In this document: positions 10,416 to 50,016 of the stretch, piece after piece
Layout: each line of letters opens with the position of its first letter
How positions within the stretch are numbered: position 1 is the first letter of the stretch
DNA from: Bacteroidota bacterium
Lineage (GTDB): Bacteria > Bacteroidota > Rhodothermia > Rhodothermales > Rubricoccaceae
Assembly (NCBI GenBank): GCA_039821555.1
Contig: JBCBNX010000025.1
Span: 1-50,089, forward strand
DNA length: 50,089 bases
Direction: 5' to 3'
Translations under genes and position numbers: made by a program
The notes under the pieces: model-generated
Told to the model about the DNA's origin: nothing
Databases searched by the model: none
Seen by the model: the letters and a program-made list of their open reading frames with translations, nothing else

Positions 10416-11615
10416 TTACAGGCCGTCTGCGTCCCCCTCGCCCGACGTAGGCTCGGCGGGGGGCTCGGTCGGCACCCCGTTGGATGACGCCGCGCTGGGT
10501 GGCGCCGCGCTGGATGGCGTTTCCTCCGTAGGCATGGCTGCCTCGGCAGAGACCCCGTCGGCGGACGCGTTGTCGCTCGCCTGGCGGGTTTCGAGTTCTT
10601 GGCGCAGCGCTTCCAGGCGCTGTTCGAGTTCGTACAACTCGCGCGCGCGCTCCTCCAGCGACTCGTAGGTTTCCGAGAGCGCCCGCTCGCGGATCTCGAA
10701 GGGCGCCAGTTCGAGGTAGCCGCGGTCCTCGTAGTAGCCCTTGAACAGGAAGTTGTGCTTGAGCGCCTCCATGTTCTCGGCGAGCCTGAACATGGCGAGG
10801 TTGCCCCAGTTGGCTGCGTCCTCCGAGCGCTCCAGCACGAGCATGAGGTCGTTGGCGATGGACCCGAGGCGGGCCGTGGCGTCCTCCACGTTCTCGTAGA
10901 CGCTCGGGTCGTTGATGAAGCGCGCGAGCGTGCCGTCGCCCTCGTTGACCTTGCTGATGATCGACTCGATGTTGGCCGAGGCGGTCGCGGCGATCGTGAC
11001 GAGCGTGTCGGCCTGAGCAGTGATACCCCGGAGCGAGACGCGCGTCTCCTGGGCCGTCGCCACGAGGCCATCGTAGAGAGCGGGATCGTAGATGAAGCGG
11101 CCGAGGGTGCCCTCGCCCGTCTGGATGTCCTGCATGATGCTCGTGAGCGTGACCGTCACCGAGTCGAAGCGCGACACCGAGTCGAAGAGCCGGTCGGAGA
11201 CCTCGCTGAGGTCGAGCGGGTCCACGCCCGCGATGCTCCCGCCTTCCGCCACCGGGGGCTCTAGCTCAGAGCCCGCCGTGATCGAGACGATCACGCTGCC
11301 GACGAGGCCGTCGGTCTGGATGAGCGCGCGCGAGTCCTCACGGATGAGGTGCTGGGCGTCCTCGCGGATCTCCATCATCACCGTAATGGGCCCCCCGGGA
11401 CGTGCCGGAAGCTGTACGCGCTCCACGCGCCCAACGTTGATGCCTTGATACAACACCTGCCCGCCGCTGAGCAGGCCCGCCACGCGGCCAAACTCGGCCT
11501 GCACGCGGAAGGTGTCCGAGAAGAGGAACGTGCGGTTGGCGATGATGAACAGACCAAGCACGAACGCGGCAATCCCCGCGATCATGAGCAGTCCGAGCCG
11601 AGCCTGTCGAGACAT
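10416..11615 (-). CDS. mlaD: MCE/MlaD-family protein (outer-membrane lipid asymmetry/transport substrate-binding component) with a long acidic/low-complexity C-terminal tail
   Basis: N-terminal TM anchor MSRQARLGLLMIAGIAAFVLGLFI followed by an Mce/MlaD domain (FRVQAEFGRVAGLLSGGQVLYQGINVGRVERVQL). It is the last gene of a permease-ATPase-MCE operon. Confidence 0.8.
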   Translation of the reverse strand: MSRQARLGLLMIAGIAAFVLGLFIIANRTFLFSDTFRVQAEFGRVAGLLSGGQVLYQGINVGRVERVQLPARPGGPITVMMEIREDAQHLIREDSRALIQTDGLVGSVIVSITAGSELEPPVAEGGSIAGVDPLDLSEVSDRLFDSVSRFDSVTVTLTSIMQDIQTGEGTLGRFIYDPALYDGLVATAQETRVSLRGITAQADTLVTIAATASANIESIISKVNEGDGTLARFINDPSVYENVEDATARLGSIANDLMLVLERSEDAANWGNLAMFRLAENMEALKHNFLFKGYYEDRGYLELAPFEIRERALSETYESLEERARELYELEQRLEALRQELETRQASDNASADGVSAEAAMPTEETPSSAAPPSAASSNGVPTEPPAEPTSGEGDADGL

Positions 11616-11617
11616 GA

Positions 11618-11725
11618 GGGAAGGAAGAAGTAGGAAGTTAGAAGTGGAAGACTGTTTGGATGTTCGAGGTGGGTAGGACGCGTCGAGGAACCGTACTTCT
11701 CACTTCAAACTTTTCACTTCTCACC
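11618..11725. repeat. purine-rich palindromic intergenic repeat, copy 1 (between the mlaF-like stop and mlaD-like start)
   Basis: Left arm GGGAAGGAAGAAGTAGGAAGTTAGAAGTGGAAG. Right arm GTACTTCTCACTTCAAACTTTTCACTTCTCACCTC, an inverted complement. It starts directly after the TGA of the upstream gene. Confidence 0.6.
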
Positions 11726-12442
11726 TCAAGGCTCGTTGCCGAAGAACTCGCGGAGGGCGGGGTGCGACGAGTGTTTGAGTTGGTCCAGGCTCCCGCTCTC
11801 GGCGATTTGGCCGTCGTAGAGGAAGTGGGCGCGGTCGGTAATGATACTCGCCGCCAGGAGGTCGTGCGTGATCGCGAGCGACGAGATGCCGAGCGTGTCG
11901 CGCAGCTCGACGATGAGCTCGCTCACGACGCGCACGCTCACGGGGTCGAGGCCCGTCGTCGGCTCGTCGTAGAGGATGATCTCGGGCTTGAGGATGAGCG
12001 CGCGCGCCAGCCCGATGCGCTTCTTCTGGCCGCCGGAGAGCTCGGCCGGATACTGTGCCCCCTTCTCGGGCAGCTTCACCGCCGTGAGCAACTCGTCGAT
12101 GCGGTCGTCCTTTTCGCCCTTCGACATCTTCGTGTGGCGGTCGAGGAAGAAGCGCATGTTCTCGTAGACCGTCATCGAGTCGAAGAGCGCGCCGCCCTGG
12201 AAGAGGTAGCCGATGGCGAGACGGTTTCGGTCGAGCGCGTCGCCGGTGAGCAGGTCTACGCGCTCGCCCTTGACCCACACCTCGCCGGCGTCGGGCCGCA
12301 GCAGCCCGACGATGTGCTTCGTGAGCACGCTCTTGCCCGTGCCCGAGCCGCCGAGGATCACGCCCGACGTGCCGCGCTCCAACTCCACGCTCACGCCGCG
12401 CAGCACCTCCTTCGTCCCGAAGGCCTTGTGCACGTTCCGCAT
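11726..12442 (-). CDS. mlaF: ABC transporter ATP-binding protein, MlaF-like
   Basis: Walker A GGSGTGKS, ABC signature LSGGQKKRIGLARAL, Walker B ILYDEPTTGLDP. The start is taken at MRNVHKAFG. The upstream part of the track ORF (to 12595) is translation of the repeat element. Confidence 0.8.
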   Translation of the reverse strand: MRNVHKAFGTKEVLRGVSVELERGTSGVILGGSGTGKSVLTKHIVGLLRPDAGEVWVKGERVDLLTGDALDRNRLAIGYLFQGGALFDSMTVYENMRFFLDRHTKMSKGEKDDRIDELLTAVKLPEKGAQYPAELSGGQKKRIGLARALILKPEIILYDEPTTGLDPVSVRVVSELIVELRDTLGISSLAITHDLLAASIITDRAHFLYDGQIAESGSLDQLKHSSHPALREFFGNEP

Positions 12443-12528
12443 CGCCACGATGAGGTGATCCGACGGTGGCGGCGAGCCCCCCGTCACCGGAGCTTGGTCA
12501 ACGTCTTTGGCTTTAGCAAGCACAGCCG

Positions 12529-12640
12529 AGGTGGGAAGTTGGAGGTGAGAAGTTCGAAGTGGCGGCCATCTTGGAAGGTCGAAGAGAACGATCACGCAAC
12601 GCGCTAGCTCTCACTTCCTACTTCGACCTGCTCACTTCTG
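12529..12640. repeat. purine-rich palindromic intergenic repeat, copy 2 (between the mlaE-like stop and mlaF-like start)
   Basis: Left arm AGGTGGGAAGTTGGAGGTGAGAAGTTCGAAGTGG. Right arm AGCTCTCACTTCCTACTTCGACCTGCTCACTTCTG. The arm motif family matches copies 1 and 3. Confidence 0.6.
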
Positions 12641-13582
12641 CTAGACGGATTCGCTAACGTCGCCGAAGATCATCAGGGAGAGGCGGACGATGACCACGTC
12701 GGCGAGGATGATGAGGAGCGACGAGACGACGACGGCGCGCATCGCGGCCTGGCCGACTTCGCGGGTGCCGCCGCGCACGGTGTAGCCCAGGAAGCACGAC
12801 GTGATGCCGACCAGGAAGCCGAACACGCTCGTCTTCATCGTGTCGACGACGATGTCCACGAAGCGGAGGCTGGAAAACGCCTCGTCGATGAAGATGCGGT
12901 AGTCCATGCCGGTGGCGAAGCTGTTCTCGATGAACCCGCCGACGAGCGCCAGGAAGTCGGTCATCGCGGTCATGATCGGAAACATGATCACGCAGGCGAG
13001 CACGCGCGTCACCACGAGGTAGTGGTAGGGCTTGAGCGCTGCCACCTCCAGCGCGTCGATCTGCTCGCTCACCTTCATCGAGCCAATCTCGGCCCCGATG
13101 CCCGCGCCGAGCCGCCCGGCTAGCACGAGCGAGGTAAGCACCGGCCCGATCTCTTTGACGACGGAGAGCGCGAGCATGCTCGGGAGGAACATCTCCGCGC
13201 CGAAGCGGGCCATCGTGCCGCGGCTCTGCATCGAGAGCACGATGCCGATGGCGAAGCCCGTGGTGCCGGTGAGCAGGAAGCTCTTCGCGCCGACCTCGTC
13301 CATCTGCTTGAGCAACTCCTTCCACTCGAAGGGGCGCCGCCAGAAGCGGGCGAAGAAGTGCCAGCCGAACGCGAAGAAGTCGCCCGCTTGGTCGAGGAGG
13401 CCGTAGGCGTTGGCTTGCGACGCCTGCAGCCGCTCCGTGGCGCGCTCGGCGAGGCTCTTCTCCTGGAGAATCTTCTCGTTTGCGCGGGTACGCCGGGCAT
13501 CGCGCAGCCGCTGCGAAAGCGACGCCTCGGGCAGCGCATCGGAGGGCACGTCCTCGGTTGAGGCGTCGTCGTAGTCGGCCAT
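12641..13582 (-). CDS. mlaE: ABC transporter permease, MlaE-like
   Basis: MlaE-type core FLLTGTTGFAIGIVLSMQSRG...SEQIDALEVAALKPYHYLVVTRVLACVIMFPIMT with about 5 TM helices. It carries a ~60-aa acidic N-terminal extension. Confidence 0.8.
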   Translation of the reverse strand: MADYDDASTEDVPSDALPEASLSQRLRDARRTRANEKILQEKSLAERATERLQASQANAYGLLDQAGDFFAFGWHFFARFWRRPFEWKELLKQMDEVGAKSFLLTGTTGFAIGIVLSMQSRGTMARFGAEMFLPSMLALSVVKEIGPVLTSLVLAGRLGAGIGAEIGSMKVSEQIDALEVAALKPYHYLVVTRVLACVIMFPIMTAMTDFLALVGGFIENSFATGMDYRIFIDEAFSSLRFVDIVVDTMKTSVFGFLVGITSCFLGYTVRGGTREVGQAAMRAVVVSSLLIILADVVIVRLSLMIFGDVSESV

Positions 13583-25535: not shown

Positions 25536-25663
25536 CGGTCAGCGAGACGGTTGGTTGACAGGAAAGGGAAGCGGCGAAGCAACCCTAAGATCACCCCGCC
25601 GCTCAGACCAGTGCGGTGTCGGACGTGCTACTTCAGCCTTCGCACTTCAGCCGTCGCACTTCG

Positions 25664-26410: not shown

Positions 26411-26572
26411 GAGAGGAGTGGGTTGGGCTGATTGAAAAGCGTGATGGCCCGTTGAAACATGTATCGGAACGAATGTTCCAGAATGGAGCAGGAGAAAATC
26501 TGAGCGGTTACGGAGGCAGCCCGGAGCTACGGCATTTTGACTGGACATACCACACCCAGCGCTGCACCTTTT

Positions 26573-26629
26573 CGACCCTCGACCCTCGACCCTCGACCCT
26601 CGACCCTCGACCCTCGACCCTCGACCCCT
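26573..26629. repeat. heptanucleotide tandem repeat (CGACCCT)x7 plus one imperfect unit; (GGGTCGA)n on the minus (coding) strand
   Basis: Read directly: CGACCCTCGACCCTCGACCCT... through 26629. It begins immediately after, and overlaps, the TGA of the TetR gene. It lies about 165 nt upstream of the SDR start. Confidence 0.9.
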
Positions 26630-27204
26630 CAGCCGAGCAACTGCATCGTCTGGTCCACCACGTCGTCGAGGACCGCGCGGTCGGGGCTCACGCGAGCGGT
26701 CACCCGGAGGCCGTAGACCGTGTTGGCGAGGAGCCGCGCCAGCGCCGTTGGGTTGCGGTCGGCGCCGATCTCGCCCTGCGCCTGCGCCTGCCGGACGGCG
26801 CGTTCGAAGCGGGCCTGGAGCACCGTGAGGCTCTCAGCCGTCCGCTCGGCCGTCTCCGGATCGTGCGGGGCACGCTCAGCGGTGGCGTTGACTACAAAGC
26901 AGCCGAGACAGTTTGCGGCAGCATCGTCCACGACGGCGCGGAGGTAGGCTTCAATGCCTGCGCGGGGCGAGCCGAGTGCGTCGCCCAACTGCTGGAGCGG
27001 GTCTACCTCAGTACCACGGTAGCGGTCGAGCGCGGCGAGGTAGAGTGCCTGCTTGCCGCCGAACGTGTCGTAGAGGCTGCTGCGGCTCAGGCCGAGGTGG
27101 TCCACGAGGTCCTGGATCGACACGGCCTCATAGCCCCGGTCCCAGAAGAGGGCTGCGGCGCGTTCCAGGACAGCGGCTTCGTCGAAGGCTTTGGCGCGGG
27201 GCAT
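26629..27204 (-). CDS. TetR/AcrR-family transcriptional regulator
   Basis: N-terminal HTH AAALFWDRGYEAVSIQDLVDHLGLSRSSLYDTFGGKQALYLAAL. 191 aa. Confidence 0.85.
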   Translation of the reverse strand: MPRAKAFDEAAVLERAAALFWDRGYEAVSIQDLVDHLGLSRSSLYDTFGGKQALYLAALDRYRGTEVDPLQQLGDALGSPRAGIEAYLRAVVDDAAANCLGCFVVNATAERAPHDPETAERTAESLTVLQARFERAVRQAQAQGEIGADRNPTALARLLANTVYGLRVTARVSPDRAVLDDVVDQTMQLLG

Positions 27205-30615: not shown

Positions 30616-31263
30616 CTAGCGGGGGCGCTGACCGTTGGCCTTGCGAATGACGCGCGTATTAGAAGCCCGGCTACGCGGTGCACTGTCGCCCTGAGAGCCA
30701 TTGCTCGGGGCGCTACCGCGCTGCGAACCGTCCCCGTGCACACCACCGAACGGGTCTGCTGGGGGGCGCTCGTTGTGGGGGCCCTGGCGCGTCGTGCGCT
30801 GGGGCTCGGGGAGGTACTTCGCCGGGACCCGTGGGGGAGATGCGAACCGCCCGCGCTCGTCGAGCGCCACCCACTGCGCTGGCATCGAATAGAGGTAGCG
30901 GCCGATGCCCCACTGCACGGCGGCCCGCTTGAGCGCGCCGGATAGGCCACCCTTGACCGATTCGAACTCGGTGTTCTCGGCGCCGTCCCACTTGGTCACC
31001 CACTCTGGCGCGTTAGCTCCCTCGCGGTGCACGAGAATGGAGAGGCCGCACAGGACGCCCCCCTCGGGCCCCGGTGCGAATTCGTTCCGCCAGTTGCCTG
31101 GCCCGCACACCTCGTCCAGGCGGTCCTGGATGGCGCGACTCGTGAGGTAGGCCATCGCTAGACCTTTTTTGCGGTCACGCGTGGTCGCCCCGGGCTTCCA
31201 CTCAATGTCGTCGTTGGGAAAGGGGGCGCTGAGGCGGCGGAGATCGTCTGGAGAGACAGCCAT
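30616..31263 (-). CDS. Rad52/Rad22-family single-strand annealing protein (DdrA/Sak-like)
   Basis: ATG at 31263 gives MAVSPDDLRRLSAPFPNDDIEWKPGATTRDRKKGLAMAYLTSRAIQDRLDEVCGPGNWRNEF, which matches the conserved Rad52 N-terminal annealing domain. The C-terminal tail is Gly/Ser/Arg-rich and looks disordered. Confidence 0.7.
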   Translation of the reverse strand: MAVSPDDLRRLSAPFPNDDIEWKPGATTRDRKKGLAMAYLTSRAIQDRLDEVCGPGNWRNEFAPGPEGGVLCGLSILVHREGANAPEWVTKWDGAENTEFESVKGGLSGALKRAAVQWGIGRYLYSMPAQWVALDERGRFASPPRVPAKYLPEPQRTTRQGPHNERPPADPFGGVHGDGSQRGSAPSNGSQGDSAPRSRASNTRVIRKANGQRPR

Positions 31264-31579
31264 AGGACAAGCTGGGCACGTCGATGGAACAGGTACTCCA
31301 CCAAGGATCGCCCCATTGAGTGACACCACTCTGTCACTCAATGGGGCGTGCTCCTGTAGGCTCGTGTAATGTGAAGAAACGTTGGGGATGTTCAGTTTTT
31401 CGACGGGAAAATCGAAGAAGAAAGCGCTTTTTATTTAGATCCTGATGTTGCTCGCATAAATGAGGTGAAACGATATGGCTCAATGCCTTGAATTCCTAAG
31501 GGTGGCCTCCTATGTTTTATCCCGTCGCACCTGGTGCGATTGGTCTTCTAGCGTTCACCGGCGGTTCCGCCGGTGCGCC

Positions 31580-36190: not shown

Positions 36191-36835
36191 ATGCTGGAGT
36201 TTCTATCCTCGGGCCCGCTGCTGCCCCTCACGGTCCTCCTCGCCATCGTCGGGGTCTACTGGCTGTTCGTCATCCTGGGCGCGCTCGACCTCGACTTCCT
36301 CGACGTGGACTTCGACGCGACGGACGCGGACGTGGACCTCGACTTCGAAGTCGATGCGGATGTGGATACCGGACTCTCGGGGTGGCAGCAGGCGCTGTCG
36401 TTCCTGCACCTCGGCATCGTGCCGTTCATGGTCGTCTTCAGCGTGTTCGTGCTGAGCTGGTGGACGGCCGCCGCCATCGGGTTCTTCGTGCTCGGCCTCG
36501 GTGCGCTCGTCGGGCTAGGCGGCAGCGCTTTGCTGGCCATCCTCGCGACGAAGGTGCTCACATGGCCGCTCGCGGTCCTCTTCCGCAAGCTCAAAGCCGC
36601 AGAGGCTCCGGTGCAGATTATCGGGCGCGTCTGCACGGCGCTCACCGCCATCGACCACGAGCGGCTCGGGCAGGCCGAGCTCGCCACCGACGGCGCGCCG
36701 CTGCTGCTCACCGTCAAGACCACCCAGCCCGGCGAGCGGGTCGCGCGCGGAGAACGCGCCCTCGTGGTCGCCCGCAGCGACGACGGGCAGGTCTACCTCG
36801 TAGATCCCGTCGCCGTCCAGCAGGCCACGGTCTGA
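36191..36835 (+). CDS. NfeD/YqiJ-like membrane protein (flotillin-associated, C-terminal OB-fold)
   Basis: N-terminal TM helix, an unusual acidic D-rich segment (LDLDFLDVDFDATDADVDLDFEVDADVD) and two more TM helices. A C-terminal beta-rich OB-like domain (IGRVCTALTAIDHERLGQAELATDGAPLLLTVKT...ALVVARSDDGQVYLVDPV) follows. It sits immediately upstream of the flotillin gene, as in yqiJ-yqiK and nfeD-floT pairs. Confidence 0.6.
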   Translation: MLEFLSSGPLLPLTVLLAIVGVYWLFVILGALDLDFLDVDFDATDADVDLDFEVDADVDTGLSGWQQALSFLHLGIVPFMVVFSVFVLSWWTAAAIGFFVLGLGALVGLGGSALLAILATKVLTWPLAVLFRKLKAAEAPVQIIGRVCTALTAIDHERLGQAELATDGAPLLLTVKTTQPGERVARGERALVVARSDDGQVYLVDPVAVQQATV

Positions 36836-36838
36836 TCC

Positions 36839-39058
36839 TTGCGGCTCGCTGCCGCCCTCCAGTTTCAACGTTTTTCTGGCCCCACCCTCTCTGTCATGGA
36901 AGCATTCTATAACATCGCCGCGGTCGTTGTCGGCTTTGTCGCGCTTATATCCCTTGGGCTAATTGCCCTGGTCGCCAAGTTTTACAAAAAGGTCGAGCAA
37001 GGCCGTGCCCTCGTGCGCACCGGTGTCGGCGGCACGAAGGTCGCCTTCTCGGGGATGTACGTCTTCCCGGTGGTCCACCGCTCCGAGCTGATGGACATCT
37101 CGCTCAAGCGCGTCGAGATCTCGCGCACGGGCAAGAACGGCCTCATCTGCAAGGACAACATGCGCGCCGACATCCAGGTGGCCTTCTTCGTGAAGGTCAA
37201 CAAGGACGAGCAGAGCGTGCAGACCGTCGCCGAGTCCATTGGCACCGTGCGTGCCTCGGACCCGCAGGCGCTCATCGAGCTGTTCGACGCCAAGTTCTCG
37301 GAGGCGCTCAAGACGGTCGGCAAGAACTACGACTTCGTCGACCTCTACAACAGCCGCGAGACGTTCAAGGAGGACATCCTCAACGTGATCGGCACTGACC
37401 TGAGCGGCTACGCGCTCGAAGACGCGGCCATCGACTACCTGGAGCAGACGCCCGTCGAGACGCTCGACCCGGACAACATCCTCGACGCGGAGGGCATCAA
37501 GAAAATCACCGACCTGACGGCGCGGCAGGCCGTGCTCGCCAACGAGATCAACCGCGAGAAGGAGAAGACGCTCAAGAAGCAGGACGTGGAGGCCCGCGAG
37601 GCCATCCTCGAACTGGAACGCCAGCTTGCGGAAAAAGAGGCGAGCCAGCGCCGTGAAGTCGAGACCGTACAGGCGCGCGAGACTGCCGAGACGGAGCGCG
37701 TACGCCAGGAGGAGCGCCTCAAAGCTGAGCGCGCCCGCATCCAGACCGACGAGGAGGTCGAGGTTGCCGAGCAGAACAAGCAGCGGCAGGTGCTCGTCGC
37801 GGAGAAGAACCGCCTGCGCACTGATGCCGTCGAGACGGAGCGCGTGGAGAAGGACCGCCAGCTCGAAGCCACCGAGCGCGAGCGCGTGGTCGAGCTCGCC
37901 CGCATCGAGAAGGAGAAGGCGCTCGAAGAGGAGCGCAAGACGATCCAGACCGTGATCCGCGAGCGCGTGATGGTCGAGAAGTCGGTCGTCGAGGAGGAGG
38001 AAAAGATCAAGGACACCCGCGCCACCGCCGAGGCCGAGCGCACGAAGTCGGTCGCGCTGACGTATGCCGAGCAGCTCGCCGAAGAGGCGAAGGTGCAGGA
38101 GACGAAAGCCGCCGAGGCGAAGCGCCTCGCCGCCGTCGAGGCCGCGCAGCAGCGCGTCGTCGAGGCCGAGGCTGAGCAGGAGGCCGCCGAGAAGGAGGCC
38201 GCCGCTATGAAGACGCTCGCCGCCGCGCGCGCCGAGGAGGAAGCCACCGTGGGCCTCTCGGAGGTCCGCGTGATGGAGGCCCGCGCCGCCGCCGTCCGCG
38301 AGGAGGGCACCGCCGAGGCCGACGTGCTCAAGCTGAAAGCCAGCGCCGAGGCGGAGGCCATCCAGGCCAAAGCGCTCGCCGAGGCCGAGGGCAAGAAGGC
38401 CCTCGCCGATGCTACGGAGGCGCAGGGCTCCGCCGAAGCGGAGGTCATGAGCCGGAAGTACGCCGCCGAAGCCGACGGCATCCGCCAGAAGGCCGAGTCG
38501 ATGAAGGTGCTCGACGGCGTCGGCAAGGAGCACGAGGAGTTCAAGCTCCGCCTGGAGAAGGACAAGGAGGTCGAGCTGGCGCAGATCGCCGTCCAGAAGG
38601 ACATCGCGCTGGCGCAGGCCGAGGTGCTCCGCGCCGGCCTCGAAGCGGCCAACATCGACATCGTCGGTGGGGAGTCGATGTTCTTCGAGAAGATCGTCGG
38701 GGCGATCACGCAAGGCCGGTCGGTGGACCGCCTCGTGGACGGCTCGGACGTGCTCAGCGAGGTCAAGGAGGCGTTCCTCTACGGCGAGGGCGCGCTCGGC
38801 GGCGGTGCGCTCGGCGACGGCGCCGACGGCGGTGTCCCGATGCTGGGCGACGGGCTCATCGCCCGCGTGCGCGGCCTCGTGGCGCAGACTGGCCTGGGCA
38901 CGGACGACGTGAAGAACCTCACGCTCTCGGCGCTACTCGTGAAGCTGATGGCGCAGACCGAGGACGCCGCCGACGCGACGGCGCTAGAGCAGATGCTCCG
39001 CACCGTGCGCCAGCTCGGTCTCGGCGACCAGAAGGCCAGCACGCTCGGGCTGAAGTAG
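36839..39058 (+). CDS. flotillin-like SPFH/band-7 protein with a very long coiled-coil region (YqiK/FloT-like)
   Basis: N-terminal TM anchor plus SPFH domain (ALVRTGVGGTKVAFSGMYVFPVVHRSELMDISLKRVEISRTGKNGLICKDNMRADIQVAFFVKV). About 400 aa of E/A/R/K-rich heptad-like coiled coil follows. 739 aa. Confidence 0.85.
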   Translation: MRLAAALQFQRFSGPTLSVMEAFYNIAAVVVGFVALISLGLIALVAKFYKKVEQGRALVRTGVGGTKVAFSGMYVFPVVHRSELMDISLKRVEISRTGKNGLICKDNMRADIQVAFFVKVNKDEQSVQTVAESIGTVRASDPQALIELFDAKFSEALKTVGKNYDFVDLYNSRETFKEDILNVIGTDLSGYALEDAAIDYLEQTPVETLDPDNILDAEGIKKITDLTARQAVLANEINREKEKTLKKQDVEAREAILELERQLAEKEASQRREVETVQARETAETERVRQEERLKAERARIQTDEEVEVAEQNKQRQVLVAEKNRLRTDAVETERVEKDRQLEATERERVVELARIEKEKALEEERKTIQTVIRERVMVEKSVVEEEEKIKDTRATAEAERTKSVALTYAEQLAEEAKVQETKAAEAKRLAAVEAAQQRVVEAEAEQEAAEKEAAAMKTLAAARAEEEATVGLSEVRVMEARAAAVREEGTAEADVLKLKASAEAEAIQAKALAEAEGKKALADATEAQGSAEAEVMSRKYAAEADGIRQKAESMKVLDGVGKEHEEFKLRLEKDKEVELAQIAVQKDIALAQAEVLRAGLEAANIDIVGGESMFFEKIVGAITQGRSVDRLVDGSDVLSEVKEAFLYGEGALGGGALGDGADGGVPMLGDGLIARVRGLVAQTGLGTDDVKNLTLSALLVKLMAQTEDAADATALEQMLRTVRQLGLGDQKASTLGLK

Positions 39059-39120
39059 CCGCCGAGCCGCAGCGTGCTCGGACGGCTCCCCCCGCTTGAC
39101 GCGCCTCGACGGCGGTCAAG

Positions 39121-39148
39121 CTGTCCCCCTCACCCGTGAGGGGGACAG
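39121..39148 (+). terminator. perfect 12-bp GC-rich hairpin between the flotillin gene and the giant ATPase gene (candidate attenuator or partial terminator)
   Basis: CTGTCCCCCTCA-CCCG-TGAGGGGGACAG. The downstream U-tract is weak (TTCGAAG). Confidence 0.3.
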
Positions 39149-39285
39149 TTCGAAGAGCGAAGCGTCGTCAGACGCGGAGGCGATGAGAACGGGGGGAGCC
39201 GAGCAGCGCTGGGTGCTCGAACTAGTCCAGAGCGTCTTGCTGCCGCCAGCCTTAGCCCATCTCCAACACTCCGTCCCATCCCCGT

Positions 39286-42200
39286 ATGGAACCGGCTCGC
39301 CCCTCCGCTCCCGACCTCGCGCCCGTCGCTGGCAACGACGTGCCGCCCAGCGGCGCGTCCGGCGACGGCGCCCCGGCTGGCACTGCGCCGAACGCGACGC
39401 CTGCGCTCGAAGGCGGCACGTACGAGTTGCTCCGCGACCGCCTCGCACAGCACGCCCGTACGCTCCAGACGCGCCTCCAGACGCTCGACGAGGCCCGCCG
39501 CGCCGTCTTCGGCAGCACCGACCTCGCGCTGATCGGCACGGCCGCGATCGCCACGCACCACAACGCCGTCGTGCGCGACCTCGTGGAGGTGCCCGGCCCC
39601 GACGGCCCGCGCCTGCTCGTCGGCTGCCACGTGCACCTCGGTCTGAAAACCGAGACGACGCTCGACGACGTGTTCGCGGCGTATGCCTTCGACGGCGACA
39701 CGGCGACCTACCGCGAGGCCCCGCTCGACGTGCTCGCCGACGAGCGCTTCGCGGAGGACTTCGCCAACCTCCATCGCTACTACAAGCAGGCGCGCTTTGC
39801 CCGCTTCGCCGAGCGCGGGCCGCACCTCTTCATGGTCTTCCAAGTCGGACAGCGCGCGGACGACATCAAGGTCTTCAAGTGGCTGCGCGGCGACGACGGG
39901 CTGCAGTACCTCGACAACCGCTCCGAGCACACCTTCGTCTACCCGACGCAGCAGGCCTTCCGCTGGCAGCGCACCACGCGCGACATGCACCGCGACGGCG
40001 CGCACCCGCACGTCTCCATCGAGGACCGCGTCTTCGTGGAGGCCGTCGGCGGCGACCTCACGGTGAAGGTGGAGGACAACACCGACAGCGGCCTCGGCGT
40101 CTACGCGGAGCCCGTCGACCACGCCGACCAAACACTCGACGACGCGGAGGTGCACTACGCCACCGCGGGGCCGCTTATCCTGATGCGCATTCGGCCCTAC
40201 CAGGAGGAGACGACGCGGCAGCTACTCTTCAACGAGAAGACGCAGGCCGTTCATCGCCTCGACGCGCTCGCACACGCGACGGTAGCGCTGCCCGAAGACC
40301 ACGGCATCGTCTACCCCGACGGCTTCGCGCTCGCAGCGGGCGGCGTCAAGCGCTTCGACGGCGTCCCGGCCGCCACCCGCTTCGAGCGGCAGATCGCCGC
40401 GCCCAACGGCGAGGACTTCCTCTTCGTTTTCCACGACGTCCAGACGGGCGAGTACGTCCTGCTGTCGTACAACCTCATCACGCAGGAGGTCGCCACGCCG
40501 GTCCGCTGCGGCGGCTACGCGCTGCGCCCCGACGGCGAACTCGTCTACGTGCGCCCCGAGCCCGAGCCGAGCAAGCACCACACGCTCCAGCGCTGGCGCT
40601 CGCCCTACCGCAGCCGCAACGGCGCCCCTCTTGCTGGCGAGGCACCCAGACAACAGGACGCGTACCTCTTCAAGGTGGGCAACAAGGACATCGTCCGCGC
40701 GCTCAGCGAGGGCTACGCGATCCTCAACCTCCTCGGCCGCGACGACGGCTACGTGGGCCTCTACGCCGACCTCGTCAAGGAGACGACGGGTCTGCTCGAC
40801 GCGACGTTCTGGCTCGACCACGAGGAGGCGGGCAACGTGGCCGAGGTGCTGCGCGGCATTCGCGAGACGGCGCAGCGAGCCCTCGCCGAGTTCGACAAGG
40901 TGCGCCGCCTCCGCCAGACGGCTCGGGAGCGCACGCAGGCCGCTGCGGCCGAGACGCAAGCGCTCCTCCAAACCGTCGAGCGGCGGACGTTCGAGTCAGT
41001 AGAGCAGTTTGTCGATGCGCTCGCAGAATTAAGAGCGGTGCGCGGGCGGCTGATCGCCCTGCGCGAGGTGCGCTACGCCGACGTGGCGCTCGCCGAGGCG
41101 CTCGAAACCGAGGCCGCCGAGGCGTCGGAGCGGCTGGCCCGCCGCATGGTCGAGTTCCTCCTCCGCGACGACGCCCTCGCGCCGTACGAGGCGCAGGTCG
41201 CCGAGGCCGCCGCGGCCATCGACGCGCTCGACACCGTCGCTGAGGCGCGCGGTGTGGCTGAGCGGTTCGACACCGCCGCCAGCGCGCTCGACCTGCTCAT
41301 CGAAACCGTCTCGAACCTCCAGATCGACGACGCGACGCAGACGACGCGCATCATCGACGCGGTCTCCGGGCTCTACGCGACGCTCAACGCCGAGCGCGCC
41401 CGCCTGAAGCGCCGCCGCGACCAGCTTGCCGAGACCGAGGGCGCGGCCGAGTTCGCCGCGCAGCTCAAGCTCCTCGAACAGGCCGTCACGAGCTACCTCG
41501 ACGTGGCCGAGACGCCCGAGGCGTGCGAGCAATACCTCACCCGCGCGATGGTGCAGGTGTCGGAATTGGAGAGCCGCTTCGCCGAGGCCGACCGCTTCAT
41601 CGAAGTGCTGTCCGAGCGCCGCGAGGAGGTCTACGCCGCGTTCGAGCAGAAGCGGCTCGCGCTCGTGGAGGCGCGCAGCCAGCGCACCGCCGCGCTCGAA
41701 CGCGCCGCCGAGCGCATCCTCGACGGCGTCCGCAGCCGCCTCGACCGCTTCGACACGGTCGAGGAGATCAACGGCTACCTCGCCGCCGACCTCATGGTGG
41801 CGAAGGTCCGCGACACCGTAGCCCAGCTCCGCGACCTCGGCGACGCGACCAAGGCCGACGGCCTCCAGACGGCGCTCAAGGCCGCACGCGAGCAAGCGAT
41901 CCGCCAGCTCAAGGACCGGAAAGAGCTGTTCGTCGACGGCCAGCCGATCCTGCGCCTCGGCACGCACCGCTTCGCCGTCAACACGCAGCCGCTCGACCTC
42001 ACAACGGTCCTCCGCGACGAGCGCCTCCACCTGCACCTCACTGGCACCGGCTTCTTCGAGCCGCTCGACGACCCCGCCATTGAGGCCGCGCGTTACCTCT
42101 GGACGCAGGAAGTCGTCTCCGAGACGGACGACGTCTACCGCGCGGAGTACCTCGCCTACCTCGTCTACCAGGCATCGCTCGTCGGGCAGTCGGAGATCCC

Positions 42201-44430
42201 GCCGCCCACGGCGCTACTCGCTGAGCCAGAGGACGACGAAGCACCTGATGCCGTGCTCGCCTCTGTACAGCGGTTCATGGCTCCGCGCTACGGCGAGGGC
42301 TACGTCAAGGGTGTGCACGACCACGACGCCGCGACGATCCTCCGCGCGCTGCTACGCCTCCACGCCGATGCCGGGCTGCTGCGCTATGGCCCCGCCGCCC
42401 GTGCTTGCGCGCTCGTCTGGTGGCACTGCTTCGCCGACGACGCGACGCGGACCCGCTTCGAGGCGCGGCTGCGCGGCCTCGGCACCGTCCAGCGGCTGTT
42501 TTCGAATGGCGAACACGATCTCGATGCCGCCACCGCCGCTCTCGCCATACCGCTCGTGGCGTTCGTCAACGACACCGGACTGTTCGAGGTCAGCATCGCG
42601 GAGCAAGCTGCGGCCTACCTCGCCCGCGAACTCGCGCAGGACGACCCGACCCGCTTCGTCGCCAGCCCCGAGGCTGTGACGTTGCTCGACGGCTTCGCCA
42701 AGGCGCTCGCCAAGCCAAAGGCAACGAAGGCGTTTGGCGACGCACTCGACCGTCTTATTGATGATCCTGCCGGCCAGGTCGCGCTCCTCCGCGATGCCCT
42801 TTCCACCTTTGCGAACCAGCAACACACGGCCTCAACGTTGAAAAGGAGTTCCCCTCCTGGACAGAGTCTTGCCCCCGCGCAGGCGGGGGAGGGGACAGGG
42901 GTGGTGGATCGAGCCGGGCATAAACCCGACAGGACTGACTCCGACCTCGTCGACGAAGCCGCCGCGATTCGCCTGGCCGATCTCCGCGAGAACGTGGATG
43001 TAGGCGCGACCGAGACGCGTGTCGAGTTGGCCGACCTGCGCGGGAGCCATGCGCGCGTGGACGATGGCACGTACCGCCTCGACTTCGCGGCCTTCCTCGA
43101 CCGGCTCGGCGCGTTCGCCAGGGAGCGCGTGCCCGCGTTCGCTGCGTTTGCCGCGCGCAAGCATGAGCGCATCCAGGCGCGGAAGGCCGAACTGCGCCTC
43201 GACGAACTCAAGCCGCGCGTCTTCTCGGGCTTCGTCCGCAACCGCCTCATCGACCGCGTCTTCCTCCCGCTCATCGGCGACAACCTCGCCAAGCAGCTCG
43301 GCACGGCGGGCGATACGACGCGCACGGACCGGCAAGGTCTGCTGCTGCTGATCTCGCCGCCGGGCTACGGCAAGACGACGCTCATGGAGTACCTCGCCGA
43401 CCGGCTGGGGCTCACGTTCGTCAAGATCAACGGCCCGGCCATCGGCCACGACGTGACGGCGCTCGACCCGGAGTCTGCACCCAACGCCGCCGCGCGCGAG
43501 GAGCTCGTCAAGCTCAACCTCGCCTTTGAGATTGGCGACAACCTGATGCTGTACGTCGACGACATCCAGCACTGCCACCCGGAGTTCTTGCAGAAGTTCA
43601 TCGCGCTCTGCGACGCCCAGCGGCGCGTCGAGGGCGTGTGGCGCGGGCAGCCGCGCACCTACGACCTGCGCGGCAAGAAGGTGGCCGTGGTGATGGCGGG
43701 CAACCCCTACACCGAGAGCGGCGCCCGCTTCCGCGTCCCGGATATGCTCGCCAACCGCGCCGACACCTATAACCTCGGCGACGTGATCGGCGAGACGGCG
43801 GACGCCTTCGCCAGCTCCTACCTCGAAAACGCGATGGGCGCCAACCCCGTCCTCGACGCCGTGGCGAGCCGCGCGCCCGACGACCTCCACGCGCTCGTCC
43901 AGGCTGCCGAGACCGACCGCCGCGACGGACTCGACCTCCAGGGCAACTATGCCCCCGACGAACTCGACGAGATCCTCGCCGTGCTGCGCCACCTGATCGC
44001 GCTGCGCGACGTGGTGCTGGGCGTCAACCAGGAGTACATCGCCAGCGCCGCGCAGAACGATGCCTACCGTACGCGCCCACCGTTCCTGCTCCAGGGCTCC
44101 TACCGCAACATGAACCGGCTCGCCGAGAAGGTCCTGCCCGCCATGACCGACGCCGAGCGCGACACGCTCGTGCGCAGCCACTACGAGCAGGAGGCGCAGC
44201 TTCTCACGAGCGGGGCCGAAGCCAACCTGCTGCGGCTCAAGGAACTGATGGGCTGGCTCACGCCCGACGAGGCCGCCCGCTGGGCCGAGATGCAGGCGAC
44301 GTTCCAGAAGAACCAGGCGTTCGCGGGCCTCGCCGACGGCGACCAAGTGGCGCAGGTGCTCGCGCAGCTTGCCGCCCTCACCGACGGCCTCGCCGCCATC
44401 CGCGATGTGCTGGCGCGCGGTGACGACTAG
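39286..44430 (+). CDS. giant (1714 aa) multidomain protein with a C-terminal MoxR/AAA_5-like AAA+ ATPase domain; function unknown
   Basis: Continuous ORF; ATG at 39286. Near residues 1340-1500: Walker A LLLISPPGYGKTTLMEYLADRLG, Walker B LMLYVDDIQHCHPEFLQKFIALCDAQRRV (MoxR-like DEINRA...-type), then VAVVMAGNPYTES. The central ~800 aa are strongly alpha-helical and A/L/E/R-rich. The N-terminal ~450 aa are of unknown fold. Confidence 0.8.
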   Translation: MEPARPSAPDLAPVAGNDVPPSGASGDGAPAGTAPNATPALEGGTYELLRDRLAQHARTLQTRLQTLDEARRAVFGSTDLALIGTAAIATHHNAVVRDLVEVPGPDGPRLLVGCHVHLGLKTETTLDDVFAAYAFDGDTATYREAPLDVLADERFAEDFANLHRYYKQARFARFAERGPHLFMVFQVGQRADDIKVFKWLRGDDGLQYLDNRSEHTFVYPTQQAFRWQRTTRDMHRDGAHPHVSIEDRVFVEAVGGDLTVKVEDNTDSGLGVYAEPVDHADQTLDDAEVHYATAGPLILMRIRPYQEETTRQLLFNEKTQAVHRLDALAHATVALPEDHGIVYPDGFALAAGGVKRFDGVPAATRFERQIAAPNGEDFLFVFHDVQTGEYVLLSYNLITQEVATPVRCGGYALRPDGELVYVRPEPEPSKHHTLQRWRSPYRSRNGAPLAGEAPRQQDAYLFKVGNKDIVRALSEGYAILNLLGRDDGYVGLYADLVKETTGLLDATFWLDHEEAGNVAEVLRGIRETAQRALAEFDKVRRLRQTARERTQAAAAETQALLQTVERRTFESVEQFVDALAELRAVRGRLIALREVRYADVALAEALETEAAEASERLARRMVEFLLRDDALAPYEAQVAEAAAAIDALDTVAEARGVAERFDTAASALDLLIETVSNLQIDDATQTTRIIDAVSGLYATLNAERARLKRRRDQLAETEGAAEFAAQLKLLEQAVTSYLDVAETPEACEQYLTRAMVQVSELESRFAEADRFIEVLSERREEVYAAFEQKRLALVEARSQRTAALERAAERILDGVRSRLDRFDTVEEINGYLAADLMVAKVRDTVAQLRDLGDATKADGLQTALKAAREQAIRQLKDRKELFVDGQPILRLGTHRFAVNTQPLDLTTVLRDERLHLHLTGTGFFEPLDDPAIEAARYLWTQEVVSETDDVYRAEYLAYLVYQASLVGQSEIPPPTALLAEPEDDEAPDAVLASVQRFMAPRYGEGYVKGVHDHDAATILRALLRLHADAGLLRYGPAARACALVWWHCFADDATRTRFEARLRGLGTVQRLFSNGEHDLDAATAALAIPLVAFVNDTGLFEVSIAEQAAAYLARELAQDDPTRFVASPEAVTLLDGFAKALAKPKATKAFGDALDRLIDDPAGQVALLRDALSTFANQQHTASTLKRSSPPGQSLAPAQAGEGTGVVDRAGHKPDRTDSDLVDEAAAIRLADLRENVDVGATETRVELADLRGSHARVDDGTYRLDFAAFLDRLGAFARERVPAFAAFAARKHERIQARKAELRLDELKPRVFSGFVRNRLIDRVFLPLIGDNLAKQLGTAGDTTRTDRQGLLLLISPPGYGKTTLMEYLADRLGLTFVKINGPAIGHDVTALDPESAPNAAAREELVKLNLAFEIGDNLMLYVDDIQHCHPEFLQKFIALCDAQRRVEGVWRGQPRTYDLRGKKVAVVMAGNPYTESGARFRVPDMLANRADTYNLGDVIGETADAFASSYLENAMGANPVLDAVASRAPDDLHALVQAAETDRRDGLDLQGNYAPDELDEILAVLRHLIALRDVVLGVNQEYIASAAQNDAYRTRPPFLLQGSYRNMNRLAEKVLPAMTDAERDTLVRSHYEQEAQLLTSGAEANLLRLKELMGWLTPDEAARWAEMQATFQKNQAFAGLADGDQVAQVLAQLAALTDGLAAIRDVLARGDD

Positions 44431-44437
44431 CGCACTC

Positions 44438-44929
44438 ATGGCGAAGACGCTTAACCAGATTGAAGGGCGCGGGCCTCAGCCTATGCCACCCGAGGTGAAG
44501 GGCCTGATAGCCAACGCTGAGCGGCTGATGGGCACACCTATCGATCAGTTTAGCGTGGGCGACCTGCGGCTCATGATCGGGCAGAACATGGGCACAGAAC
44601 ACCTGATGCCCAGAGCGCTCGGTGTGCTCGAATTGAATCCCCTCGTGTGCGGGACGTTCTTCCCTGGCGATCTGCTGAAGGCAACGTTCCGGCTCCCAGC
44701 AGTGTACTGGACGCAGCATCCGGCGCACCATGAGCGTGCGCTCGCCATCGCCCGCCAAGCACTAGACATCCTCGAAGCTCGCTGCGCCCGCTCGAAAGCG
44801 CGCTTCTATAAGCGGTACGGTACGCACCTCAACGAAGAGGAATGTTTGGATATCGACGAGCGTGACGTTAAGCAGTGGTGTCTGGATTTTCTCGCGAGCT
44901 ACGATGGGAGCGGCGTGGCAACCCGCTGA
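44438..44929 (+). CDS. small conserved-looking hypothetical protein, translationally coupled to the giant ATPase gene
   Basis: ATG at 44438, 8 nt after the TAG of the giant gene. 163 aa, MAKTLNQIEGRGPQPMPPEVKGLIANAERLMGTPIDQFSVGDLRLMIGQNMGTEHLMPRALGVLELNPLVCGTFFPGDLLKATF... I recognise no family. Confidence 0.6.
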   Translation: MAKTLNQIEGRGPQPMPPEVKGLIANAERLMGTPIDQFSVGDLRLMIGQNMGTEHLMPRALGVLELNPLVCGTFFPGDLLKATFRLPAVYWTQHPAHHERALAIARQALDILEARCARSKARFYKRYGTHLNEEECLDIDERDVKQWCLDFLASYDGSGVATR

Positions 44930-44972: not shown

Positions 44973-45203
44973 ATGTCCAGACTCATCAAGATCATCGTCG
45001 AGAAGCACTCAGATGGGTACGTTGCCTACCCAGTTGGGTTGAAGGGCGTCGTCGTGGGACAGGGCGATAGCTATGAGGAGGCGCTTGCGGATGCGCGGAG
45101 TGCGGTGGCGTTCCACATCGAAACGTTCGGGCCGGAGGTGCTCGATAGCGATGACGGTCCCGTCTTGGAGGTGTTCGTAGCTGAAGCGACCGTAGCCGCC
45201 TGA
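44973..45203 (+). CDS. hicB: HicB-family antitoxin
   Basis: 76 aa, MSRLIKIIVEKHSDGYVAYPVGLKGVVVGQGDSYEEALADARSAVAFHIETFG. This is the HicB/UPF0150 RNase-H-like fold pattern. Confidence 0.8.
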   Translation: MSRLIKIIVEKHSDGYVAYPVGLKGVVVGQGDSYEEALADARSAVAFHIETFGPEVLDSDDGPVLEVFVAEATVAA

Positions 45204-45448
45204 TGTCGGAGCGCTTTCCCCGGGATGCCCCGCTGCGTCGCGTACTGGCGTCGCTCGAAGCGCTCGGCTTCCGGATCGTGCGCGAAGGCAACCACATCGC
45301 GATGCTGCATGAGGATGAGGACGGCACCCGGACGCCGCTGACGCTCCCCAACCATCGCACGATCAAAGGTTCTACCTTGCGCGCCATCCTCCGGCAAAGT
45401 GGCATTGGGCGGGACGAGTTTTTGAAGGTCTACCGCCGCGCCAAGTAG
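45203..45448 (+). CDS. hicA: HicA-family mRNA interferase toxin
   Basis: 81 aa, LRRVLASLEALGFRIVREGNHIAMLHEDEDGTRTPLTLPNHRTIKGSTLRAILRQSGI (YcfA/HicA dsRBD-like). The start overlaps the hicB stop (TGATG). Confidence 0.8.
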   Translation: MSERFPRDAPLRRVLASLEALGFRIVREGNHIAMLHEDEDGTRTPLTLPNHRTIKGSTLRAILRQSGIGRDEFLKVYRRAK

Positions 45449-48902: not shown

Positions 48903-49328
48903 ATGCCCCGTATCGCTGCTGTTGACTATGGCACCAAGCGCGTCGGCCTCGCCGTGACGGATCCGCTCGGCCTGTTCGCGCAGCCCATCGGCACGTTCGA
49001 CGCGAAGGGCGCGGTGGACGAGCTGCGGCGGCTGGCACAGGGCACCGGCACCGAGGAGCTCACGCTCGTGCTCGTCGGCTGGCCGCTGCTGCCTGACGGC
49101 ACGGAAGGCGCGATGGTCGAGAAGGTGCGTCCCTACCTCAACCGCCTCCGGAACGCGCTCCCCAGCGTGCGCGTGGAGCCCTACGACGAGCGGACCACGT
49201 CGCGCCGCGCCCAGCGTGCGCTGCTCGCCGCAGGCGCGTCGAAGAAAGGCCGCCGCGACAAGGCCCGCCTCAACGCCGCCGCCGCCGCCGTCCTCCTCCA
49301 AGACTACCTCGATGAAGTGGGAGGGTAG
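48903..49328 (+). CDS. ruvX: Holliday-junction resolvase-like RuvX/YqgF (pre-16S rRNA nuclease)
   Basis: MPRIAAVDYGTKRVGLAVTDPLG... is the conserved YqgF N-terminus. 141 aa. Confidence 0.85.
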   Translation: MPRIAAVDYGTKRVGLAVTDPLGLFAQPIGTFDAKGAVDELRRLAQGTGTEELTLVLVGWPLLPDGTEGAMVEKVRPYLNRLRNALPSVRVEPYDERTTSRRAQRALLAAGASKKGRRDKARLNAAAAAVLLQDYLDEVGG

Positions 49329-49409
49329 AAGTAGGAAGCTAGAAGTGGTTCTCGTAAGCCACTCTAGTCTCTCGACTTCTAACTTCTCACCTCGCACTTC
49401 CTACTTCGA
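49326..49409. repeat. purine-rich palindromic intergenic repeat, copy 3 (between ruvX and def)
   Basis: Left arm TAGAAGTAGGAAGCTAGAAGTGG. Right arm ACTTCTAACTTCTCACCTCGCACTTCCTACTTCG. Confidence 0.55.
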
Positions 49410-49413
49410 CCCC

Positions 49414-50016
49414 ATGGTGCTTTCCATCTACACGCTCGGCCAGCCCGTCCTGCGCCAGGAAACCGCGCTCGTTGAGGCCGACTCGCCCGAGCTGCAGCAG
49501 CTCATCGACGACATGATCGAGACGATGCATGGCGCGAGCGGCATCGGACTGGCAGCCCCGCAGGTGGGGCGTACGGAGCGGCTCTTCGTGGTGGACCTCA
49601 GCCACCTCGCCGACGACCTGATGGAGGACCTCGGCCTGACCGACCCCGCTGACCTGCCGACCTGGGCGCGCGGCCCGCAGGCGTTCATCAATCCCGAGAT
49701 CGAACCCGTCGAGCCGGACGTGACGAGCGAGTTCGAAGAAGGCTGCCTTTCGATCCCCGACCTCCGCGAGGACGTGACGCGCCCCGACTCGGTCCGCGTG
49801 CGCTACCTCGACCGCCACCTCGCCGAGCAGGAAGTCCTCGCCACCGGCATGCTCGCGCGCGTCGTGCAGCACGAGAACGACCACCTCGACGGGGTGCTGT
49901 TCGTGGACCACCTCTCGCCGCTCAAGAAGCGCCTCCTCAAGCGCCGCCTCCGCCGCATGGCCGAGGGTGACGTCGAGGCCGATTACCCGCTCGCCATCCC
50001 GCAACAGGCGACTTAG
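49414..50016 (+). CDS. def: peptide deformylase
   Basis: Motifs GIGLAAPQVG, EGCLSIPD and the metal-binding HENDHLDG. Start at MVLSIYTLGQPVLRQ. Confidence 0.9.
   Translation: MVLSIYTLGQPVLRQETALVEADSPELQQLIDDMIETMHGASGIGLAAPQVGRTERLFVVDLSHLADDLMEDLGLTDPADLPTWARGPQAFINPEIEPVEPDVTSEFEEGCLSIPDLREDVTRPDSVRVRYLDRHLAEQEVLATGMLARVVQHENDHLDGVLFVDHLSPLKKRLLKRRLRRMAEGDVEADYPLAIPQQAT

Follow-up and report, generated by a model that had tools for sequence, protein, structure and literature searches.

The stretch analysed here, positions 1 to 50,089 of contig JBCBNX010000025.1 (GenBank assembly GCA_039821555.1; below, the window, meaning this whole stretch of 50,089 nt), belongs to a metagenome-assembled genome (MAG) species of the Rubricoccaceae within the Rhodothermales. 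It carries an mlaE-F-D-like operon on the minus strand and, towards its right end, the co-directional genes ruvX and def on the plus strand. Three palindromic elements occupy the mlaF/mlaD (copy 1), mlaE/mlaF (copy 2) and ruvX/def (copy 3) junctions (Table 1), where a preliminary description drawn from the letters of the DNA had placed them. The gaps measure 110, 117 and 85 nt, respectively, and each is filled by its element from the stop codon onwards; copies 1 and 3 overlap the end of the upstream gene, and the ruvX stop codon TAG (49326-49328) is formed within the copy 3 array itself. Towards the downstream gene, the mRNA 3' arm of copy 1 ends 4 nt before the mlaD ATG by the chain-scan boundary (GGAAG at 11620-11624), the last exact ACUUC unit ending 11 nt upstream of that ATG, and the GARGTNN arm of copy 2, which is its mRNA 3' arm, ends 4 nt before the mlaF GTG at 12523. 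The 289-aa GTG open reading frame (ORF) of mlaF (start 12595) extends 24 codons into copy 2, an N-terminal extension already suspected to be spurious; public gene calls put the start at 12523, 72 nt further down, giving 265 aa, and this GTG is probably the true start.

Table 1. Repeat elements, their arms and the flanking genes in the window
Feature	Coordinates	Strand	Remarks
Copy 1, heptamer-array hairpin	11616..11727	-	Fills the mlaF-to-mlaD gap; transcript 5' end overlaps the mlaF stop by 2 nt
Copy 1, GAAGTNN arm	11620..11647	+	GAAGGAA GAAGTAG GAAGTTA GAAGTGG; 4 units by chain scan; mRNA 3' arm (NNACUUC)
Copy 1, NNACTTC arm	11693..11727	+	5 units; Tandem Repeats Finder period 7, 4.3 copies; mRNA 5' GARGU arm, begins in the stop codon
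Copy 2, heptamer-array element	12524..12640	-	Fills the mlaE-to-mlaF gap; one arm degenerate
Copy 2, GARGTNN arm	12528..12562	+	GAGGTGG GAAGTTG GAGGTGA GAAGTTC GAAGTGG; 5 units; Tandem Repeats Finder period 14
Copy 2, degenerate NNACTTC arm	12604..12638	+	CTAGCTC TCACTTC CTACTTC GACCTGC TCACTTC; starts 2 nt past the mlaE stop on the mRNA
Copy 3, heptamer-array hairpin	49314..49413	+	Begins in the last four codons of ruvX and reaches the def ATG
Copy 3, 5' arm	49314..49348	+	GAAGTGG GAGGGTA GAAGTAG GAAGCTA GAAGTGG; 5 units, two degenerate; Tandem Repeats Finder period 14
Copy 3, 3' arm	49373..49407	+	CGACTTC TAACTTC TCACCTC GCACTTC CTACTTC; 5 units; ends 6 nt before the def ATG
Possible degenerate fourth member	25630..25662	-	One-armed; GAAGTGC GAMGGCT alternating, 14-nt period
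mlaE-like permease	12641..13582	-	Pfam MlaE, 2e-66; upstream gene of copy 2
mlaF-like ABC ATPase	11726..12523	-	Pfam ABC ATPase; start probably GTG at 12523, not 12595
mlaD-like protein	10416..11615	-	Pfam MlaD; downstream gene of copy 1
ruvX	48903..49328	+	Pfam RuvX; 141-aa form on record in 11 contigs
def (peptide deformylase)	49414..50016	+	Pfam; downstream gene of copy 3

The elements form a real family of purine-rich/pyrimidine-rich inverted repeats: the window holds 18 matches to GAAGTNNGAAGTNNGAAGT (at most 2 mismatches), against a mean of 0.04 and a maximum of 1 in 100 dinucleotide shuffles. Sixteen of these matches lie inside the three elements and two at 25630-25662, in the possible fourth member, whose array begins 1 nt after the stop codon of a short-chain dehydrogenase gene. 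A period-7 chain scan combined with Tandem Repeats Finder (periods 7 or 14) resolves all six arms of the three elements into tandem heptamers, three to five per arm. The unit consists of a conserved GA(A/G)GT core and two free bases, and the opposite arm is its reverse complement, NNACYTC. The centres between the arms (24-46 nt) cannot be aligned among the copies, in keeping with their first description as non-conserved. Outside the core, the copies have only a small set of variable bases in common. Copies 1 and 3 share a 21-mer, in which a run of three identical variable dinucleotides recurs; such a run is reached in 16% of shuffles, so the shared 21-mer is no evidence of copy-and-paste relatedness.

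The elements are very probably heptameric simple-sequence-repeat (SSR) hairpins, in their identity and in the origin proposed below. All three carry the marks of long simple sequence repeats (LSSRs): at least two to three head-to-tail units, a 3' bias in intergenic DNA and inverted pairing. This kind of repeat is known. Xanthomonas harbours heterogeneous heptameric SSRs of the form (GGGANTN)n, and Nostoc the unit GGGGAYT (Rehm et al. 2015, PLoS One, PMC4692102). The Xanthomonas arrays comprise 2-26 units, form 70-75 stem-loop-capable inverted pairs per genome, are 89-93% intergenic with a mean distance of 28 nt to the upstream and 160 nt to the downstream ORF, and are under-represented between divergent genes; they occupy the same gene pairs in two species with varying length and sequence, and slippage is their proposed origin (PMC4692102). 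Mrázek et al. 2007, as cited in PMC4692102, proposed that the 7-nt length of heptamer LSSRs favours polymerase slippage. With the Xanthomonas and Nostoc SSRs the window elements share a 7-nt unit of conserved and variable positions, inverted pairs and proximity to the upstream ORF. They differ from those of Xanthomonas in their Rubricoccaceae host and in starting at the stop codon itself; further, one-armed GAAGT arrays are sense-biased (38:8), whereas the Xanthomonas arrays lie about equally on both strands. GAAGTNN units contain no G-tract and hence no G-quadruplex pattern of at least four runs of at least three G, and are left with the hairpin only. Because the GAAGT unit cannot form a G-quadruplex, the G-quadruplex idea raised for Xanthomonas is no general explanation for inverted heptamer arrays.

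Two further families are close in form. The STRR heptanucleotide repeats of Calothrix and Nostoc were reportedly described by Mazel and co-workers in 1990 and are cited in PMC4692102. They resemble the window elements as tandem heptamers with genome-specific units in non-coding DNA, also inside operons; their units differ (e.g. CCCCAGT), and they are mostly described as direct arrays. The TAACTGA repeats of marine Beggiatoaceae, cyanobacteria and some Bacteroidetes are likewise intergenic heptamers with a gene-orientation bias, found inside ribosomal-protein operons and scattered over phyla (MacGregor 2015, PMC4679880). Unlike the stop-anchored inverted pairs of the window, they are direct repeats that end one to a few nt before start codons, with one inverted case (PMC4679880). 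New, then, are the GAAGT sequence flavour and the Rubricoccaceae lineage. The initial statement that the family is not a described one holds for the GAAGT unit, for which no paper was found (literature on GAAGT repeat strings yields PCR primers only, and no description of such repeats was found in the literature around Rhodothermus, Salinibacter and Desulfonema); it does not hold for the kind, the heptameric SSRs of PMC4692102.

The architecture recurs well beyond the window. A strict inverted pattern (3+3 units, 10-40 nt apart) is present in 8 viral stretches and at least 120 metagenome stretches, on contigs of 33 to 70% GC. The 4-unit one-armed pattern gives at least 120 matches in viral contigs; the 5-unit form gives at least 120 in species-representative genomes of many phyla, mostly isolated heptamer microsatellites, with an inverted partner at 8 of 120 loci among the matches listed (Brocadiaceae, Raineyaceae, Akkermansia and Phycisphaerales included). 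With permuted cores, the inverted pattern occurs in 10 viral stretches for GATRG, 3 for GTARG and none for AGRTG. Three contigs (L059, L064 and L065) represent structural gene modules of tailed phages, encoding terminase, portal, head and tape-measure proteins, and their GAAGT hairpins are placed exactly between co-directional genes. In hosts that use Shine-Dalgarno (SD) sequences, the element stops short of an exposed SD. The spc/alpha ribosomal-protein operon of 'Desulfobacteraceae bacterium IS3' (L278) carries GAAGTGA hairpins at five junctions, and a relative with 94% SecY identity (L388) carries them at no fewer than 11. The same junctions in Desulfonema magnum are filled by other units (AATTGAG, TCAGCTT, ATTTGGG), and those of Desulfonema ishimotonii and Desulfococcus are compact, with no arrays. 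In L388, a Desulfonema-like MAG, five copies of a palindrome about 65 nt long (GGTGGGCAGAGCGCAGATCAGGCAGTTAC...GCTGCGCTCTGCCCACCCT) lie at 2505-3110 and 9495-9840, each inserted between or beside GAAGTGA heptamers in the gaps of the ribosomal-protein operon. The arrangement is reminiscent of Nostoc, where small dispersed repeats insert into heptamer arrays.

Across the 107 elements, the arrays are confined to transcribed 3' flanks and anchored at the stop codon. Classifiable elements have co-directional neighbours in 35 cases, convergent in 18 and divergent in 1, compared with 125, 29 and 44 for element-free gaps of at least 40 nt at the same loci (chi-square p = 1.3e-4). First heptamers cluster at -10 to +10 nt relative to the upstream stop codon, and the median distance to the downstream start is about 14 nt. 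One-armed arrays start at the stop codon (median 0 nt) at a median of 44 nt from the next start, with the GAAGT strand as the sense strand in 38 of 46. Over 205 arm ends, conservation of the GAAGT core exceeds 95%, with positions 6-7 free to vary; beyond the heptamers, these ends show neither a conserved position nor a conserved terminus, the first base of the outer unit being already degenerate. Target-site duplications are not in evidence either, the longest flanking direct repeat averaging 4.65 nt against 4.51 +/- 0.10 for swapped flanks. The two arms co-vary: their variable dinucleotides agree at 0.62, compared with 0.305 +/- 0.03 when arms are swapped among elements.

Between relatives, heptamers are gained and lost whole. 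Two loci with 99% identical flanks (L304 and L344) differ by two heptamers in one arm. With flanks about 83% identical, L282 and L341 retain a hairpin at one shared stop/start junction, and both arms differ in their variable bases and in the number of units. At L18/S5, Desulfonema magnum has AATTGAG units where a relative has AAGTGAG, one base apart in both arms. The mla junctions of four Rhodothermales relatives are as long as those of the window (64-178 nt) and contain no GAAGT units; their fillings include octamers GRGGGATY with an inverted arm, AAGGAGC x3 and GACGAGY x3. In Rubricoccaceae relatives these gaps measure 97-165 nt and are occupied by short-period purine/pyrimidine repeats of other kinds. 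In three of these relatives the junctions fold with z < -1.5 at only 2 of 6; the fourth, folded with no shuffle controls, has long mla gaps and no arrays. Conservation of a hairpin at orthologous mla junctions is only suggestive. In Rubricoccus marinus (L248:10943-11990) a perfect palindrome, GGCCTCTGGCGCCAGAGGCC, stands at both mlaE-F-D junctions, and the mlaF/mlaD gap holds portions of a third occurrence; this repeat is REP-like, unlike the heptamer arrays of the window.

The host lineage bears on the reading of the pyrimidine-rich arms. Several MAGs (GCA_039817495, GCA_038525005 and others) encode the identical MlaE and RuvX and match the window at 99.7-99.9% identity, free of gaps; the closest MlaE relatives after these share about 70-74% identity and belong to the Rubricoccaceae, Rubrivirga and Rubricoccus among them. 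The window locus also encodes proteins sorted by the type IX secretion system (T9SS) and TonB receptors. In one conspecific assembly (L392:5777-6634), a DDE transposase gene (DDE_Tnp_1) lies directly 3' of def and the downstream synteny is altered, a strain-specific rearrangement just past copy 3; copy 3 itself is unchanged. An SD-like 4-mer precedes only 3 of 50 genes in the Rubricoccaceae loci (L001, L247-L249 and the window), and the leaders contain 46% C and 20% G (for example ...ccctctctc and ...cttccttccctc). Judged from these leaders, the window organism uses no Shine-Dalgarno sequences. Since SD-like 4-mers are so rare and the leaders are C-rich, the elements are not generic purine-rich ribosome-binding regions. 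Their pyrimidine-rich arm is similar in composition to the normal leaders of the lineage.

In RNA folding, the sense transcripts of copy 1 (-34.5 kcal/mol, z -3.09 against shuffles) and copy 3 (-41.9 kcal/mol, z -3.89) form more stable structures than expected. The predicted stems are 5-bp helices broken by the variable dinucleotides. At the Rfam gathering threshold only 23S and 5S rRNA are matched and nothing at the elements; a permissive Rfam search of 11500-12800 gives chance-level matches only (E >= 4).

Taken as a whole, these observations are best explained by SSR hairpins that are built by slippage and serve as intercistronic stem-loops, an explanation to which we assign a probability of about 0.55; the stem-loop function, considered by itself, is put forward tentatively. 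The arrays would grow and shrink in whole heptamers by replication slippage, and the arms would stay alike either through concerted evolution by template switching from arm to arm or because pairing is selected. No transposase would move them. They would persist only where a non-triplet repeat with a strong hairpin is harmless, the permitted zone being the transcribed stretch after a stop codon, up to the next initiation region or to the stop codon of a convergent gene. In a polycistronic mRNA the product would be a long interrupted stem-loop with its base at the stop codon. Such a stem-loop could act as a barrier to 3' exonucleases, protecting the upstream cistron, and/or as an entry site for a double-strand RNase; neighbouring cistrons would thereby be free to differ in stability and translation, and at some junctions the hairpin may mask the downstream initiation region. 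REP sequences are said to stabilise mRNA and, where they lie within about 15 nt of a stop codon, to interfere with termination, in work attributed to Newbury (1987) and to Liang and Deutscher (2015). The RNase III hairpins of phage T7 mRNA are long stem-loops exactly between co-directional genes, of unique sequences and not simple-sequence arrays. The present elements also lie exactly between co-directional genes, phage late operons included.

Several points weigh against this explanation. The sense fold of copy 2 is no better than its shuffles (z 0.03). Among 37 co-directional elements, sense and antisense folds do not differ (22 vs 15, p = 0.33), and copies 1 and 2 of the window fold about 9 kcal/mol better as antisense; since the two strands fold equally, selection on the sense RNA is unsupported, and the variant in which it would act through G-U pairs was rejected for lack of fold asymmetry. 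Complementarity of variable bases between the arms of the window copies is poor. Six conspecific assemblies at 99.7-99.9% identity contain no SNP or indel in copies 1 and 2, and three more have an identical copy 3; with the window copies invariant at this identity, slippage is invisible in the window species. The census in that species covers about 59 kb of its genome and yields three copies and one degenerate copy, with no further copy in the 9.3 kb beyond the window. Gene contexts in the metagenome loci derive from heuristic gene calls. One element, in L065, is flanked by a 15-nt direct repeat, the sole case among 97 elements. Finally, one dominant unit fills many junctions per genome (GAAGTGA at >= 11 in L388), a dispersal-like distribution for which pure in-situ slippage is insufficient.

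A purely neutral origin is a serious rival. It takes the same heptamer hairpins as functionless by-products of slippage and quasi-palindrome correction that accumulate where they are harmless, and it is a real possibility, if the less probable account. The equal sense and antisense folds and the chance-level fold of copy 2 fit it directly, as does the free turnover of units and lengths between relatives. Scarcity between divergent genes can be explained by avoidance of harm alone, as argued by Rehm et al. (PMC4692102), and Desulfococcus and Desulfonema ishimotonii do without arrays at the same ribosomal-protein junctions. Against a lack of function stand the persistence of the arrays in size-constrained phage structural operons and highly expressed ribosomal-protein operons, their retention at orthologous junctions over about 17% flank divergence with both arms changing together, the very tight fit from stop codon to initiation region, and the strong sense bias of one-armed arrays.

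A broader view treats the arrays as a cross-phylum, stop-codon-anchored intercistronic class that either spreads from junction to junction leaving no target-site duplication or is maintained because a conserved activity at the RNA level, such as processing, stability or control of termination and reinitiation, depends on it. This is unlikely; were the second alternative true, slippage would amount to a built-in tuning knob for stem length.

Slightly less likely still is a non-autonomous mobile element, a REP/REPIN mobilised by RAYT or a miniature inverted-repeat transposable element (MITE), transposing next to stop codons, the class to which the preliminary description leaned. The REP/MITE label is not borne out for the window elements. 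Like REP, BIME and REPIN sequences, the elements are extragenic imperfect palindromes 3' of genes and inside operons (PMC3116915, PMC3733652). REPs are conserved 20-40-nt units with a GTAG/CGTC head and a RAYT gene, and the window arms are variable-number heptamers in which no conserved head was found. The unit GAAGTAG, which contains GTAG, is present in 4 of 6 window arms; it is not always the outermost unit, and GTAG is only one of many choices of the variable bases, not located at a fixed conserved end. MITEs (Correia, ERIC, RUP, Nezha) are similar as short inverted repeats in intergenic DNA that are often co-transcribed; their terminal inverted repeats, target-site duplications and conserved body are all missing from elements of the window type, whose centres are unrelated and whose lengths vary. 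The 205 arm ends, the flanking repeats and the chance-level likeness of the window copies beyond the core speak against transposition in the same way. Movement of the IS200/RAYT type leaves no target duplication, which counts for a mobile origin. No RAYT or other transposase was found among the window genes scanned with Pfam or by precomputed Pfam hits, nor in the next 9 kb. The relatives' orthologous gaps are equally long with none of these units, and strain differences consist of whole heptamers within an arm, not of whole elements. A mobile origin stays a rival because a single unit dominates many junctions in one genome, and in one lineage arrays have been acquired at junctions which its relatives keep compact. 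The 15-nt direct repeat around the L065 element also belongs on this side. There (L065:5046-5170), a GAAGTCA hairpin in a phage contig is flanked by GGTGGAGGATGAGTA, which duplicates the stop-codon/Shine-Dalgarno junction and looks like a single insertion or duplication event.

Of about the same low likelihood is translational coupling in the absence of an SD, in which a terminating ribosome would melt the outer heptamers and free a pyrimidine-rich leader masked by the 5' arm. The arms abut stop and start codons, and the leaders of the lineage are SD-less, C-rich and G-poor like the ACTTC arm. With the stop-codon region held open, the calculated cost of opening the copy 1 initiation region drops from 18.6 to 5.0 kcal/mol. 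Copy 2 shows no such relief, its cost going from 8.9 to 11.2, and for copy 3 the effect is marginal (7.8 to 6.1). One third of the classifiable elements lie between convergent genes and have no downstream start, and one-armed arrays hug the stop codon, not the start. In SD-using hosts, moreover, the element ends before an exposed SD. Since a third of the elements lack a downstream start and the calculation is good for copy 1 only, coupling would at most be a local secondary use.

An array on which a protein that binds single-stranded nucleic acid (cold-shock-domain or S1-like) would place one monomer on each heptamer, or a series of weak SD-like sites, is improbable. The idea was proposed earlier for the TAACTGA repeats, and CspB binds heptamer repeats (PMC4679880). 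It would suit a 5-nt core that stays constant while 2 bases vary at strict 7-nt spacing across phyla, the sense bias of one-armed arrays, and GAGGTGA units that match the SD consensus. Other cores (GATRG, GTARG, AATTGAG, TCAGCTT, GGGGTTC) build the same architecture, sometimes within one operon, so no single recognition sequence is conserved; hairpin units are paired, not single-stranded, and the window organism has no SD usage. Intrinsic (Rho-independent) terminators, suggested by hairpins at gene 3' ends and their enrichment between convergent genes, are hardly credible, given that no terminator-like site matches at the window elements, that T-rich tails (5 or more of 8) are seen at just 3 of 35 element ends in co-directional and 4 of 36 in convergent contexts (about 10% overall), that the stems are not GC-rich and that the window copies sit inside operons whose downstream genes must be expressed.

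The wider pattern of intercistronic SSR hairpins is of more interest than the three copies themselves: anchoring at stop codons, sense bias, presence in phage and ribosomal-protein operons, and a unit incapable of G-quadruplexes. Among the long simple-sequence repeats of bacterial intergenic DNA, those with a heptanucleotide unit are over-represented most strongly. Stop-codon anchoring together with the one-armed sense bias points to a constraint tied to transcription or translation, and phage late and ribosomal-protein operons are places where useless DNA should be costly. The arrays also pose an annotation hazard, through false N-terminal extensions as in mlaF and array-encoded C-termini as in ruvX, and they are easily mistaken for REPs or MITEs.

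Two further tandem repeats in the window are placed at stop codons. A perfect (TCGACCC)x8 array (26572-26627) reads (GGGTCGA)x8 on the minus, transcribed strand and is G-quadruplex-capable like the Xanthomonas GGGAATC; it starts right after the stop codon of a TetR-family gene (26629-27204) and has no inverted partner. At 47818-47875, a 20-nt unit (CGGTTTGAAGAGTAGGCCAG) is repeated 2.9 times from the last relA/spoT codons (stop codon at 47832) into intergenic DNA.

At its left edge the window contains a 23S rRNA gene represented by its 3' end (1-640), and an entire 5S rRNA gene (747-857). Three co-directional genes span 36191-44430; the products of 214 and 739 aa have no Pfam match, and the third, of 1714 aa, contains DUF3686 ('ATPase involved in DNA repair'), DUF7902 and AAA_5. 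Public calls place a CdiI_3 immunity-like gene at about 44438-44929, followed by a HicA toxin pair at 44973-45448. The 36191-44430 cluster may be a defence or repair island. A Rad52/Rad22-family gene (30616-31341) adjoins a 367-nt intergenic region (to 31708) with two strong GC-rich hairpins, whose GC content of 54% is atypical of the 66% GC genome.

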